Part shown: one piece after another, positions 7,579 through 25,104 of the stretch | Layout: every line of letters starts with the position of its first letter | How positions within the stretch are numbered: the stretch's first letter is position 1 | IMG/VR virus record: IMGVR_UViG_3300005662_000039 | Coordinates: 4,188 to 68,187 of that record | Direction: 5' to 3' (one strand) | Length of the DNA stretch: 64,000 nucleotides | From: a virus | Taxonomy: Duplodnaviria; Caudoviricetes | Notes under the pieces: generated by a model | The model's database searches: none | Seen by the model: only the letters and a program-made list of their open reading frames with translations | What the model was told of the DNA's origin: nothing | Position numbers and translations under genes: made by a program

Positions 7579-8250
7579 TTATGTAGGAGAATAGTTTTTT
7601 CCTTGCGATTCCTCTAAAGAATAATCAATTGCAATCGATAAAGTCGCTTCGTAGAAGCTTTTCCTGGAATCAACACCAACAATCCAGCGATATTTGGGAT
7701 CTCCCTCTGACTTCTTTCTATTTACAATAGTGGTAAAGTCTTCTCCTGTCTCTGAATGTATTCTCATTATTTCAGAGCTAACTGGAGGAGTTACAACCCC
7801 ATTTGGAGTTGCTTTTTTGACTACAACTACCTTGTCATTAGAGGGTATGTCAGTCAACTCAAAATCAGCGGATATAAACTTAAAAGGCAGTGATCTATTG
7901 CCTGAAAAAACCGCATCGCATATGGCATTTCTTATTTCTTCTTGCTTTTCTGTTATTACTTGAGAAGCAACCATGGATCTCCATTCTTCAAAAGCATTTA
8001 TTTCACTGTTATCAGGATCTTCTGACTTCACCATCTTGTCAAGAACTTTTCTCAAGGTCTTGCAGTCCTTGACATCAAATCTTATCCATGTATTTTTTTC
8101 CCCTAGACCTGACATTTTTCCTTTACTCATCTTGAAGTCGACAAGAACGGAATCCTTGTCCTTCATTGCCTGATCCACTATGTCCTGCACTGCATCGGCT
8201 ACTTCTATTGACTTTATAAATTCCGAAAAAGATTCAGATATCATGTTCAA
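7579..8250 (-). CDS. hypothetical protein
   Basis: 223-aa ORF; exact start uncertain (TTG 8250, ATG 8244 or a later GTG/ATG). Confidence 0.7.
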   Translation of the reverse strand: MNMISESFSEFIKSIEVADAVQDIVDQAMKDKDSVLVDFKMSKGKMSGLGEKNTWIRFDVKDCKTLRKVLDKMVKSEDPDNSEINAFEEWRSMVASQVITEKQEEIRNAICDAVFSGNRSLPFKFISADFELTDIPSNDKVVVVKKATPNGVVTPPVSSEIMRIHSETGEDFTTIVNRKKSEGDPKYRWIVGVDSRKSFYEATLSIAIDYSLEESQGKNYSPT

Positions 8251-9133
8251 CTTAAAATTCCTTTCACTTAGAAATTTCTGTGGTTATAGAGAGCTAGATC
8301 TCGATTTTGAGATCGGAAATTCTCCCATTCATGTTGTTTTCGGTCCCAATGGCACTGGAAAGAGCACCATGCTTTCAGCCATAAGGATACTTGCAAATCC
8401 TCAAATGTTTCTAAATAGAGACAATGATCTTATTTTTAGAAAACTCACATGGCATCCAGATTACGATCCTACGACAATCGGATTTACTCCTTCGTCGGAA
8501 CCGCTTTTTATGAAAGCAGTATTTTCAGATATAGAAGGAAGTCAGAAGATAGTGACCATGGACAACCATGGCGTCATTGCAAATGAACTGCCTCATTATC
8601 GCAGCGATCAGGAAGGCTTTAGCATTTTTGTAGATGCAGATCATCCTATGAACATGAATAAGTTTCAGATTCCAGAAGAAGCAGGAGACAAGTTCCTAAG
8701 ACTGGCAAAGGCAGTATATGGTCTTCCTGTTTCATTGAATACAGCAATCAAAGTTGCAGAATTGGATTCATCTAGGAATTTCCATACAGACTTCATGATA
8801 GTAAAGGGTGAAGTAAATGTTCACTTTAGAAGAATGAGCGATGGAGAGAAGAAAATAGCAACATTACTACGTCACATATGCACTGAAGCAGTTCATAATC
8901 CATCAAGAATAATATTAATAGATAATGTAGAAATGCATATATACTTCAAAAGACACTCACTGCTTTCAAAGGCTTTATGCAAGGAATTTCCAGACAAGCA
9001 GTTTATAACTACATCTCATTCAAAAGCTTTCATAGATTCATGTCGTGAGCAGTATGGATCATATTCTCTCATAGATCTCGAAGAGAAGTTTTCAAAGGAC
9101 TACGCTCTGTATTCAGTAGATGAATCCTACTGA
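8243..9133 (+). CDS. ABC/SMC-like (AAA_15/AAA_21/OLD-type) ATPase
   Basis: MFNLKFLSLRNF start; Walker A GPNGTGKST; signature MSDGEKK; Walker B ILIDNVEMH; H-loop ITTSHS. Confidence 0.85.
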   Translation: MFNLKFLSLRNFCGYRELDLDFEIGNSPIHVVFGPNGTGKSTMLSAIRILANPQMFLNRDNDLIFRKLTWHPDYDPTTIGFTPSSEPLFMKAVFSDIEGSQKIVTMDNHGVIANELPHYRSDQEGFSIFVDADHPMNMNKFQIPEEAGDKFLRLAKAVYGLPVSLNTAIKVAELDSSRNFHTDFMIVKGEVNVHFRRMSDGEKKIATLLRHICTEAVHNPSRIILIDNVEMHIYFKRHSLLSKALCKEFPDKQFITTSHSKAFIDSCREQYGSYSLIDLEEKFSKDYALYSVDESY

Positions 9134-9600
9134 TCGGCGTAAACCGATAGGCTCCATCCGCTACGCGTCTGGAGAGTATCGTCTCGGCTTCGCCTCGCCA
9201 ATACTACGTTTTCTTTCTCGTTTATAATAAATTTTTCCATCTATTAATGGGCTCTGGGAGCAGAGTATCTCCTAAGAGAGCCACTCGCGTAAATTACCAT
9301 TCAGAACGCAATATTTCATTGCTCACGCGAGGACAGCGCTACCATTATTCTGATATGGTACCCTAATTCTGTAAAGTAGCGGAAAGGATAATGTCCGCTT
9401 GGACGCACGAAGCATGCGTTTTACAACCACTGCATTACCTAAATGAACAGTCTTTTACCTCTGATGTTTAAGTCTTGATAGATGCAGGCTACCTCTTCGG
9501 TTAGGAAGAGTACAGGCTTGCGGGTCTTAGCCATGGGGTGTCGCGCCTGAAACCCCTACCCCCCCTGTTCCTGGATGTTGCCGTGCTTGCGGCATTGCCT
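9133..9600. ncRNA. candidate structured non-coding RNA or ssDNA origin/initiation element
   Basis: ~470 nt with no ORF of 60 aa or more, visibly more GC-rich than its flanks, with about ten consecutive stem-loops (listed in findings). Confidence 0.5.
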
Positions 9601-9662
9601 TTTTATCGACAAAATGATTCTAGAGAAGAGGTAGATATGTTAAAAAAAAGTATTATAAAAAA

Positions 9663-10001
9663 GTGATTTCTCTATATCCACAATCATCTGGAATAAAAAG
9701 CAGTCAAAAATCAACAGCCCCATCTCACCCTAGAAAAGGTGATGTTTGGATTTATCCAATTACGGGAGAAGAGACTGTGTGGTATGTTGACTCTAATGAC
9801 AAGGCTGCTTTTGTTGAGTTTGCTGACAATGCCATATGGGAGGATTTAGCTGAAGCAACTTCTGAATTAAAATTTCCATCAAGCAGTCCTTCAATATCTC
9901 AAATTTTAATACATGGAAGAAGAAAATGGCAGTGGAACGGCAAATTCTGGAAATCACTTTATCCCGCATTGGTGGTGCGTGGAGGAACTTTCTCAGATTA
10001 G
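9663..10001 (+). CDS. small fibre-associated structural protein
   Basis: FPSSSP...KWQWNGKFWKS pattern typical of phage fibre modules; ends RGGTFSD. Confidence 0.6.
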   Translation: MISLYPQSSGIKSSQKSTAPSHPRKGDVWIYPITGEETVWYVDSNDKAAFVEFADNAIWEDLAEATSELKFPSSSPSISQILIHGRRKWQWNGKFWKSLYPALVVRGGTFSD

Positions 10002-22912: not shown

Positions 22913-23272
22913 ATGCCTGATCCGCAGTTAAGATATTTAATAGTGGTGCCTGTTTATAAACAGTTGTCAGTTAACGCCGTACTAGAAAAATTAGTAGATA
23001 GAGCAAAATCTTTTTTTCAGTTAGATTGTGCATGTTCGAGATATGGGAATATGCCTCCTTCTCACTTTTATTGTTCTAAATTAACTCAGGAAGCTTTTGA
23101 TGTAGCATCAATTGTTATTGAAGAAAATATGCCTCATTGCTATTGGTGCAGTTTTTTTGATGGTGATTTTGTATGGGATACTAATGTTGCAGAGTGCGCC
23201 AATATGATAGGAGAGAAAGTCTCGGACAGAGAATTTCTAAAGACTATAGGGCTTAAGCCGATAAGAGTATAA
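22913..23272 (+). CDS. hypothetical protein upstream of terminase
   Basis: GGAGG RBS before ATG 22913; stop overlaps the TerL start. Confidence 0.6.
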   Translation: MPDPQLRYLIVVPVYKQLSVNAVLEKLVDRAKSFFQLDCACSRYGNMPPSHFYCSKLTQEAFDVASIVIEENMPHCYWCSFFDGDFVWDTNVAECANMIGEKVSDREFLKTIGLKPIRV

Positions 23273-25104
23273 TGGCAAAAAGAGGAAGACCTCCACTAGT
23301 CAATCCGATCATTAAGCATTTGGGAGACTTGAGAAAAGTCATCCAGACTACATCTATATCATCTGAAATAAATAGAAAAATACCTTCTATAGAGGAATTC
23401 ATAGATAGTGAAGACTACTTGGGTCTTCCCAAGCGCACCCCCCATCCAATCAACCTTTTTCCTATGCAGCGTATAGTACTGAAGGCTTTTTATAGGGGTA
23501 CTGAGGGAAATGAAAATGTTAAATTAACAGAAGAAGAGATTCAACTTTGTCGTGATTTAGAACTTGAAGATGAAGAGAATGGGGATTTTATCAACAAGTA
23601 CGAATCAGACAACCTTTTCACCGAAATGGTTCTGGTTTGGGGCAGGAGATCAGGTAAAGATTTTTGTGTTGCCATTATTGCCCTGTACGAAGCGCTTAAG
23701 TTATTGGAAGCGCCAGGTGGCGATCCTCATGCATTGTATGGATTAGGAGGAGGAGCTCCATTTAATATACTAACAATAGCAAACTCGGCATCTCAAGCGC
23801 AAGTTTTGTTCAATGAGATTAAGGATAAGATACTTCCTTCTAAGTATTTTCAAACAAAAATGGGATCGGATTGCATTACGGCAGACTCAATTCATTTGCT
23901 GACGCCGTCTGATATGAAAAGAAATAAAGACATGGAAGCAAAAGGACTTCCTCAAACGCAAGGTAGCGTCATTATAAAATCTGGTCATAGCAATTCGGAT
24001 TCTCTCGCTGGAATTGGCTGTTATTGTTTATTGTTGGATGAGATTGGCTTATACAAGCAAACTTCTGGATCTTCCGGAGGAGAGGCTATATACAGAACTT
24101 TAACTCCAGCCACTGCAACATATGTAAGAAAAGTAAAAGGTGTTGATAAGAATGGAGAGGAGACAGAAAAGTCTGTTTATGATGGCAAGATCATATGCAT
24201 AAGCAGTCCGCGAGGTAAAGATGGCATATTCTATGATTTGTTTAGCAATTCTCCATCAGTCCCGCATAGGATTACATGCAGACTTCCTACATGGAGCGTT
24301 AATGTCAATCAAAGCCAGGAAGATCTGCGCGCAAAATTTGGGGCTATGTCAGAAGAAGAATTTAATATGGAATTTGGCGCAGAGTTTTCAGGAATGTCTG
24401 GTCAGACGTTTTTTTCCAGAGATGTAGTTGAATCATGTTTTATAAATAATCTAAAATTAAAGGAAAGAGGAGAAATAGGTAGACAATACTATTGTCATCT
24501 TGATCCTGCTACAAGTTCTCATAATTATGCTCTTGTAGTTGTTCATAGAGAAGATTTTATAAATAAAGAAACTGGGAAATCTGATTTTAGAGTGTTGGTA
24601 GACCATGTGAAGGTTTGGACTCCATCAAAAAGTAGACCAATAGTAAATAGAGAGATAGATGACTACATAATAAAACTAAATAATAATTTTATATTATCAC
24701 AAGTCAGTTTTGATCAATGGAATTCTGCACAGAGCATAGAAAATCTAAGGAAGCATGGCATTCCCGCAAAACTGACGAGATTTACTAAAAGGTATAAGAA
24801 TATAATTTACGACAATTTATACGATATAGCAAGTTCAGGTAGACTAAAGATACCTCATGAAGAATTGCTTAAAAATGAAATGTTGTATTTACAGCGAAGA
24901 TTTACCCCAACTGGCTATAGAGTATTTGCCAAAAAAGATGGTCTGGTAAAAACGGACGACTCTGTAGATGCACTTGCTGGAGCCTGCTATGGATGTGTGC
25001 AGGAAAATGTGGATAGGCTACCAAGTGGTAGGCTGGCAAGAATGAATTTATGGTCTTTTGGTCAACAGTCAGGTGTGGCGAATACATTTTTTAATAGACT
25101 ATAA
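23272..25104 (+). CDS. terL: terminase large subunit
   Basis: Walker A WGRRSGKD; Walker B LLLDEIG; motif III ISSPRG; RNase H-like nuclease HLDPA, FDQWNS, DDSVDALAG. Confidence 0.93.
   Translation: MAKRGRPPLVNPIIKHLGDLRKVIQTTSISSEINRKIPSIEEFIDSEDYLGLPKRTPHPINLFPMQRIVLKAFYRGTEGNENVKLTEEEIQLCRDLELEDEENGDFINKYESDNLFTEMVLVWGRRSGKDFCVAIIALYEALKLLEAPGGDPHALYGLGGGAPFNILTIANSASQAQVLFNEIKDKILPSKYFQTKMGSDCITADSIHLLTPSDMKRNKDMEAKGLPQTQGSVIIKSGHSNSDSLAGIGCYCLLLDEIGLYKQTSGSSGGEAIYRTLTPATATYVRKVKGVDKNGEETEKSVYDGKIICISSPRGKDGIFYDLFSNSPSVPHRITCRLPTWSVNVNQSQEDLRAKFGAMSEEEFNMEFGAEFSGMSGQTFFSRDVVESCFINNLKLKERGEIGRQYYCHLDPATSSHNYALVVVHREDFINKETGKSDFRVLVDHVKVWTPSKSRPIVNREIDDYIIKLNNNFILSQVSFDQWNSAQSIENLRKHGIPAKLTRFTKRYKNIIYDNLYDIASSGRLKIPHEELLKNEMLYLQRRFTPTGYRVFAKKDGLVKTDDSVDALAGACYGCVQENVDRLPSGRLARMNLWSFGQQSGVANTFFNRL

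Follow-up and report, generated by a model that had tools for sequence, protein, structure and literature searches.

The 64,000-nucleotide (nt) stretch of viral DNA analysed here (the window) makes up most of the 68-kb IMG/VR virus record IMGVR_UViG_3300005662_000039, for which CheckV gives a completeness of ~15%. Its genes lie on the minus strand left of ~8250 and on the plus strand from 8180 onward, and the plus-strand block encodes the large terminase, the portal, and the major head protein. Between a gene for an ABC-type ATPase and a small open reading frame (ORF) there is a gap (9134-9662) in which the longest ORF is at most 42 amino acids (aa) and all frames are closed. A sequence-only reading of the window had described 9133-9600 as a non-coding element built of stem-loops, and had suggested either a novel large phage non-coding RNA (ncRNA) or an origin or priming signal; the non-coding assignment holds, as ORFs above 42 aa are absent from 9134-9662, and we now place the element at 9134-9612. 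The locus is organized as follows:

8180-9133, plus strand: gene for the ABC-type ATPase, with AAA_21/SMC_N and PtuA/AriA-like family matches; upstream neighbour of the gap.
9134-9612, minus strand: proposed ncRNA gene of ~480 nt; its ends are approximate, with the 5' end at ~9610 and the 3' end at ~9134-9150.
9663-10001, plus strand: small ORF with no family match; downstream neighbour of the gap and first gene of the plus-strand virion-gene block.

The ATPase gene (8180-9133) provides a synteny anchor, and was used to find relatives in IMG/VR and in JGI metagenome contigs. Relatives with an ATPase identity of at least ~47% carry an ORF-free gap of 530-730 nt at the same place; at or below ~46% the gap is mostly absent, with the exception of the loci L044 and L045. 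The closest ATPase homologues are 76-84% identical. The window and two of these relatives, L033 and L034 (ATPase 74% identical), constitute family A, a set of three sequences in which the gaps of the relatives align with that of the window. Nucleotide identity with the two relatives is 61-63% in the gap, 71-73% in the ATPase gene, and 53-59% in the small ORF, and because conservation of the gap lies between that of the two neighbours, we take it to be under purifying selection.

This level of conservation bears on another account of the gap, that it is a decayed gene or a functionless run of chance hairpins. Distant relatives do have an ORF of 170-230 aa directly behind the ATPase gene, similar in size to the gap, and the folding energy of the window is only mildly unusual. 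However, these downstream ORFs are unrelated to one another, the genes directly behind the ATPase in distant relatives being mostly unrelated ones (hexapeptide transferase, YfbR-like, Lar, AAA_28), and tblastn of the downstream proteins against the gaps found nothing, indicating that the gap did not arise by decay of a conserved partner gene. Moreover, all frames are closed, the gap is as conserved as its coding neighbours, and there are compensatory substitutions within it; to judge from the alignments, decay or chance is already contradicted by the covariation data, and we find it barely credible.

We take the element to be real because the comparative evidence is decisive, the folding energy of the single sequence being only modestly unusual. 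The comparison with shuffled copies that the sequence-only reading had named among its refuting conditions yields a modest signal, with a z-score of -0.86 for the window gap on the plus strand and of -2.46 on the minus strand (2 of 100 shuffles equal). For the family A alignment, RNAalifold predicts 111 pairs on the minus strand, 34 of which stay paired when both partners change. A curated set of 58 pairs in 10 helices is paired in 96.5% of its cells and includes 14 pairs with double changes; none of 500 shuffles equals it, and sliding the partners by 1-3 columns leaves 35-43% paired, with 0-2 double changes. Neither blastn of the gap against cultured-phage records and the first related loci (no match) nor nhmmer with the family A alignment (own members only) extends the family.

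Each of the stems listed by the sequence-only reading is present in the window, and compensatory changes in L033 and L034 back CTCCA/TGGAG (H2), the hairpin around GGC-TTC-GCC (H3, 9175-9205), CTCGCGT/ACGCGAG together with its inner hairpin, AGCGGA/TCCGCT, ACGCA/TGCGT, CTCTTC/GAAGAG, and TGCCG/CGGCA. Others fare less well: GGCT/AGCC is invariant and hence uninformative on covariation, the pairing of GGCTCT/AGAGCC (9250-9282) is lost in L033, and at the place of ATCGG/CCGAT (9133-9148) the relatives have other hairpins. The local hairpin TACCAT/ATGGTA (9340-9360) gives way to a different pairing, in which ATGGTA at 9355-9360 joins the TACCAT at 9295-9300 and a T-A pair covaries to G-C. The core of the element is built around this pairing:

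9295-9306 with 9348-9360, bulged base 9354, minus strand: pseudoknot stem S1; 12 pairs, 100% paired in the three sequences, with four double changes.
9284-9290 with 9325-9331 (CTCGCGT/ACGCGAG), minus strand: pseudoknot stem S2; 7 pairs, 100% paired, with one double change and one minus-strand U-G.
9331-9345, minus strand: conserved pseudoknot loop L1, minus-strand reading AUGGUAGCGCUGUCC; contains the plus-strand 7-mer CGCTACC.
9280-9284, minus strand: GUGGC, directly 3' of S2 in the minus reading; found in 14 of the 14 sequences compared, and part of the descriptor given below.

In the window, the TACCAT/ATGGTA part of S1 is extended by TCAGAA (9301-9306) pairing with TTCTGA (9348-9353), and the counterparts of the stem are TACCAG.CCAAA / TTTGG.CTGGCA in L033 and TACCAG.CCGAA / TTCGG.CTGGCA in L034. 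S2 encloses a small hairpin (9308-9322) and takes seven different sequences across the families introduced below. Because S1 crosses S2, the two are predicted to form an H-type pseudoknot in place of the local hairpin. The only strongly conserved sequences are the L1 loop, AUGGNNGN(2-3)UG(U/A)CC, and the 3' flank GUGGC.

A second long-range contact involves the loops of two hairpins:

9403-9419, minus strand: hairpin K1, ACGCA-CGAAGCA-TGCGT; loop partner of K2.
9579-9594, minus strand: hairpin K2, with plus-strand letters TGCCG-TGCTTG-CGGCA; loop partner of K1.

This contact comprises 5-6 base pairs and connects the 5'-terminal hairpin (K2) to a central one (K1). The loops read AAGCA/TGCTT in the window, TTTTCC/GGAAAA in L033, and CTTGCA/TGCAAG in L034, such that the letters differ and complementarity is kept; the K2 stem also covaries, being CAGTCC/GGACTG in L033 and GTGCCT/AGGCAC in L034. 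An unbiased search of hairpin loops recovered exactly these loop pairs, and a loop pair of at least 6 nt anywhere was present in 18 of 480 dinucleotide shuffles.

Homologous elements are located in the post-ATPase gap of about ten further distinct sequences from related large-phage contigs, which we assign to family B (L002-L006, L035-L040, and L093-L095), family C (L048-L053 and L096-L099), and family D (L044 and L045). The gaps of B, C, and D align with one another, and the small ORF at 9663-10001 is homologous to the small ORF behind the gap in family B. Aligned over 167 minus-strand columns, B and C share 29 pairs, 96.7% paired, with 18 double changes (25-39% paired in the slid controls), and these include a second pseudoknot, in which a hairpin loop is paired with a downstream segment. 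The K1-K2 contact covaries in these families too (TTACAG/CTGTAA, TTGCAG/CTGCAA, and TAACAG/CTGTTA, the first and last of these being seen in family B), with further variation between TGGC/GCC and TGGT/ACCA. The L1 motif AUGGNNGN(2-3)UG(U/A)CC is common to families A, B, C, and D. We had considered the plus-strand CGCTACC as a same-place homology between A and B and rejected it, as it lies in the pseudoknot loop in A and in another segment in B; the true B and C counterpart of the family A loop segment is GGACA..GCCCATCT.

In the minus reading, the module shared by the four families consists of the S1 5' arm, AUGGNNGN(2-3)UG(U/A)CC, the S2 5' arm, a variable loop, the S1 3' arm, 3-4 nt, the S2 3' arm, and GUGGC. 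Its orientation relative to the flanking genes is the same in all four, and in every family the element occupies a fixed locus, flanked by the ABC-type ATPase gene on one side and by the virion-gene block on the other. A script applying this descriptor finds 33 sites in 731 kb (both strands), all of them on the minus strand in the post-ATPase gap, and none in five shuffled copies; the window satisfies it at 9280-9345, minus strand. Pattern scans of IMG/VR gave 45 motif matches, with the S2 stem only in contigs that were already known, and a scan of GTDB gave no new members among the matches listed. Two GTDB matches that pass the stem test are in G+C-rich sequence of unrelated bacterial genomes, and we read them as chance. 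A covariance model of families B, C, and D (R1; 6 pairs, 78 positions) scores L044 and L045 at 64.9 bits. The tie of family A to B, C, and D appears well supported by architecture, though it rests on a descriptor formulated post hoc.

Family B also has features that are its own. Directly behind the ATPase stop codon are two hairpins that show C-GAA-G triloops and tandem G-A mismatches when read on the plus strand (L004 4940-4985, L006 4962-5010), and both covary (GAACCC/GGGTTC and GAACAC/GTGTTC; GGGGC/GCCCC, GTGGC/GCCAC, and ACCGC/GCGGT). The motif CCGTTTCTGT is present twice in L002, L004, and L093 (for example, at L004 5181-5196 and 5251-5270), and the copy by the pseudoknot complements an AACGG hairpin loop across a variable A+T-rich linker (TCCGT/ACGGA). 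Such a pairing would turn the linker into a closed loop; as the motif never varies, it is uninformative on covariation. A closing helix across the gap ends, GTGCCGA/TCGGCAC, fits B by eye, but is lost in A and C and competes with a covarying hairpin, and was set aside.

The sequence-only reading had drawn attention to d(GCGAAGC)-type mini-hairpins and N4-type promoter hairpins. On this account the element would be a single-stranded DNA structure, in which extruded hairpins with GNA triloops provide a priming or promoter signal as at the G4 origin or N4 promoters, and it could draw on the minus-strand C-GAA-G (9186-9194) and C-GTA-G (9160-9168) triloop hairpins, on the similar GAA hairpins behind the ATPase gene in family B, and on the tolerance of DNA for G-T wobbles. 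However, the triloop hairpins are small, are not part of the core, and are on opposite strands in families A and B, whereas covarying pseudoknots and a kissing contact that spans 160-230 nt are features of a folded RNA. Among the proteins scanned, no virion-RNA-polymerase-type gene was identified. We regard a DNA mini-hairpin signal as very improbable, the covariation of the pseudoknot and kissing loops speaking for a folded RNA instead.

The strand of this RNA can be addressed by counting wobbles in the helices that are backed by compensatory changes, bearing in mind that the family A and S1/S2 sets partly overlap. In the family A helices, six cells are G-U on the minus strand (equivalent to A-C on the plus strand) and two are A-C on the minus strand; the corresponding minus-strand numbers are 19 and 4 in the B/C core helices, and 13 and 3 for S1/S2 in all families. 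One five-pair helix of the B/C core contains nine G-U at three positions and zero A-C. The B/C core is 96.7% paired as minus-strand RNA versus 91.2% as plus-strand RNA, and in four of five sequences the minus strand has the lower minimum free energy z-score. Because of the G-U excess, the lower minus-strand z-scores, and the purine-rich internal loop of H3, we consider it very likely from these sequence comparisons that the element is a minus-strand RNA, and the minus-strand preference suspected by the sequence-only reading is upheld by the G-U versus A-C counts.

The same data bear on a plus-strand cis-regulatory RNA, which would be either the 3' untranslated region of the ATPase gene or a leader from a promoter in the A+T-rich linker, with K2 as a terminator before the virion-gene block and with the K1-K2 contact or the pseudoknot setting read-through by attenuation or antitermination. 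Such an RNA would be in keeping with the plus-strand orientation of all flanking genes right of 8180, with the placement of the element immediately before the late-gene block in each family, and with K2 and its T-run, which fit an intrinsic terminator in the window and L034. We nonetheless think it unlikely, as the excess of G-U over A-C points to the minus strand in three helix sets that partly overlap, the plus-strand fold has the weaker z-score, the T-run behind K2 is missing from L033 and from families B and C (L006 of family B and L048 of family C), and 480 nt with several tertiary contacts far exceeds what known attenuators need.

A number of observations weigh against a minus-strand ncRNA. 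Promoter-like matches on the minus strand are not above shuffle expectation, and no clear minus-strand terminator was found in the scans; as noted, K2 and its T-run in the window and L034 have the look of an intrinsic terminator on the plus strand. With only the three family A sequences as input, automated strand tests (RNAalifold on both strands, helix intersection, and a strand-neutral helix finder) were ambiguous or gave spurious helices; the question called for curated helices and for the larger set from B and C. Covariance model R1 misses the window even with filters off, and the GAA-hairpin features are on the plus strand in B and on the minus strand in the window (9175-9205). The descriptor that unites the families was written after viewing both groups, and is a measure of consistency and not an independent test. 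Lastly, any trans-acting or oligomeric role would be by analogy only.

Beyond the core and the kissing hairpins, the following parts of the element can be distinguished:

9604-9622, minus strand: possible start region; TATCGA at 9604-9609 (plus-strand letters) is conserved, and a -10-like TAGAAT is read on the minus strand at 9622-9617.
9535-9539 with 9552-9556, minus strand: stem Pk, GGGGT/ACCCC, changed to GAGGT/ACCTC in L034.
9515-9532, minus strand: hairpin b, invariant.
9493-9510, minus strand: hairpin c, CTCTTC/GAAGAG; the arms are wholly different in L033 (TCCATCT/AGATGGA) and L034 (CCCACT/AGTGGG).
9430-9435 with 9482-9487, minus strand: long-range stem Pg; 6 pairs, 3 double changes, with an irregular hairpin inside.
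9378-9399, minus strand: hairpin H7, AGCGGA/TCCGCT, with a conserved 10-nt loop; 6 pairs, 2 double changes, 100% paired.
9250-9282, minus strand: hairpin H4, poorly conserved; pairing lost in L033.
9206-9249, minus strand: A+T-rich linker, variable; length and sequence differ in L033 and L034.
9175-9205, minus strand: hairpin H3, with the GAA triloop and the purine-rich internal loop on the minus strand only.
9152-9174, minus strand: hairpin H2, with compensatory changes in family A.

The H2/H3 segment is 96% identical between the window and L034 over 56 nt and is restructured with compensation in L033, where a minus-strand U-G of the window and L034 is replaced by U-A. The TAGAAT noted earlier on the minus strand at 9617-9622 is present and aligns with TAGAAT in L034 and TATACT in L033, and versions of TATCG(G/A) are found in each of families A, B, and C.

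The A+T-rich linker invites comparison with replication origins, as the sequence-only reading had proposed in another form. A minus-strand transcript entering 9206-9249 would there form a persistent hybrid that primes DNA synthesis, similar to ColE1 RNA II or phage T4 origin transcripts, and the kissing hairpins would be possible targets of copy control. The element is ~1 kb right of the switch between minus- and plus-strand genes (~8.2 kb), the cumulative GC skew has a broad minimum at 8-12 kb, and an A+T-rich segment lies in or beside the structured RNA in all families. However, the change in sign of the skew is broad and is what the gene-orientation switch alone predicts, and the record represents only ~15% of the genome; the interval 9000-9800 is free of iterons and direct repeats, and no replication genes were identified nearby. 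Furthermore, it is the pseudoknot loop that is most conserved, whereas the A+T-rich segment varies in length and position between families. We judge an origin element to be improbable, and the mini-hairpin version of the idea is likewise not supported, there being no iterons in that interval and the skew mirroring gene orientation.

The element was also compared with known RNA families. Against Rfam 15, cmscan returned nothing for the window at gathering score, for 9000-9800 at E<=10, or for the gaps of eight relatives at E<=5; among the families without a match are group I and II introns, RNase P RNA, tmRNA, 6S, known riboswitches, and ribozymes. ARAGORN finds no tRNA or tmRNA in the 64-kb window and no tRNA in nine related loci, in agreement with the earlier remark that tRNA, tmRNA, RNase P, and intron hallmarks are lacking. 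No reverse transcriptase is present in the record, and the ATPase gene and the small ORF are complete, separate genes that are also found in relatives without the gap.

Several features of the flanking genes are of note in their own right. A hairpin, CAGTAG/CTACTG (9112-9133), covers the final codons of the ATPase gene together with its stop and directly abuts the RNA region. The ATPase itself, of ~300 aa and PtuA/AriA/AbiL-like by PADLOC, is kept in many large-phage contigs of up to 500 kb (loci L055-L110) with no conserved nuclease partner, and the genes behind it vary (hexapeptide transferase, YfbR-like, Lar-like, AAA_28). At the other end of the gap there is a 9-codon ORF at 9638-9666 (ATG TTA AAA AAA AGT ATT ATA AAA AAG TGA), which is preceded by AGAGG, overlaps with its stop codon the GTG start of the small ORF at 9663, and holds a near-perfect 12-nt tandem (TTAAAAAAAAGT / TTATAAAAAAGT); it may serve in translational coupling or provide a slippery A-run. 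Further into the block, the large terminase (23272-25104) has as its top match among deposited phage records the uncultured 485-kb phage LR745208.1, at 26% identity, followed by Streptomyces and Mycobacterium phages at ~25%.

We favor the interpretation that the gap encodes a stand-alone structured ncRNA of ~480 nt, transcribed from the minus strand and belonging to an undescribed family, and from the sequence comparisons this seems probable; it also seems likely that members of the new family occur, always at one position, in a small clade comprising uncultivated phages of large or giant size. Of the two possibilities raised by the sequence-only reading, the novel large phage ncRNA is thus the one that gains support, from the conserved covarying structure, the pseudoknot, the kissing loops, and the absence of an Rfam match. 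In the literature searched, no description of such an RNA in giant phages was found, which is weak evidence of absence. The RNA would be antisense to both flanking genes, and would fold with an H-type pseudoknot at its centre, variable hairpin domains around it, and a loop-loop contact between K1 and K2. It may act in trans as a compact folded particle, in the manner of ROOL and GOLLD; the kissing loops, which change quickly and are always complementary, could either clamp a single molecule or join copies into an oligomer, and function would most likely reside in the conserved pseudoknot loop, as a site of ligand binding, protein binding, or catalysis. A more specific version, in which this is an ornate RNA whose kissing loops join copies into an RNA-only assembly, or whose invariant pseudoknot loop is catalytic or ligand-binding, is attractive and tentative, and we would not expect it with any confidence.

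Few large and intricately folded ncRNAs are known, and RNase P, group I and II introns, OLE, ROOL, and GOLLD have each revealed new RNA biochemistry or architecture; giant phages, for their part, have a reputation for carrying unexpected functions of cellular type. The element described here offers a predicted fold that can be tested, its features being a pair of crossing stems, a loop-loop contact, and a conserved loop of 15 nt. If it is what we propose, giant phages might carry a further RNA machine at the head of the virion-gene block, although we put this forward as a speculative and somewhat doubtful prospect.

Three known systems share some of these features. ColE1 RNA II/RNA I and the phage T4 origin transcripts are structured transcripts by an A+T-rich segment, with kissing hairpins used for recognition, and the element resembles them in having a structured RNA by such a segment as well as kissing hairpins; it is unlike them in that both kissing hairpins are on the same strand, there are no origin features, and the pseudoknot loop, not a hybrid-forming segment, is most conserved. 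The phi29-family pRNA (RF00044) has two complementary loops whose letters change between related phages while complementarity is kept, and is encoded beside structural and packaging genes; both the changing complementary loops and the location beside structural and packaging genes are seen here. However, there is no Rfam match to pRNA, whose family members are ~120-170 nt, and an RNA of ~480 nt is ~4x longer and of a different architecture; moreover, because this phage has a conventional large terminase and portal, an RNA-dependent packaging motor is not expected.

The nearest kind would be the large ornate phage RNAs ROOL (RF03087) and GOLLD (RF01998), although membership was tested for both and found for neither: the element matches neither Rfam model, is not beside tRNA genes, where ROOL and GOLLD are usually located in phages and prophages, and is smaller than GOLLD. 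Its core is an H-type pseudoknot with an AUGG...UGUCC loop, and it is confined to one narrow phage clade and one fixed locus. ROOL and GOLLD form homo-oligomeric cages, and the covariation seen here cannot separate intramolecular from intermolecular contacts. Nevertheless, in common with these RNAs it would be a phage-encoded stand-alone RNA of several hundred nt, with many covarying helices, pseudoknots, covarying kissing loops, a conserved core, and variable or disordered linkers. A ROOL kissing loop that was first detected by covariation proved to join different chains of the nanocage, and the covarying kissing loops of ROOL and GOLLD are inter-chain contacts in RNA-only cages (PMC12286853).

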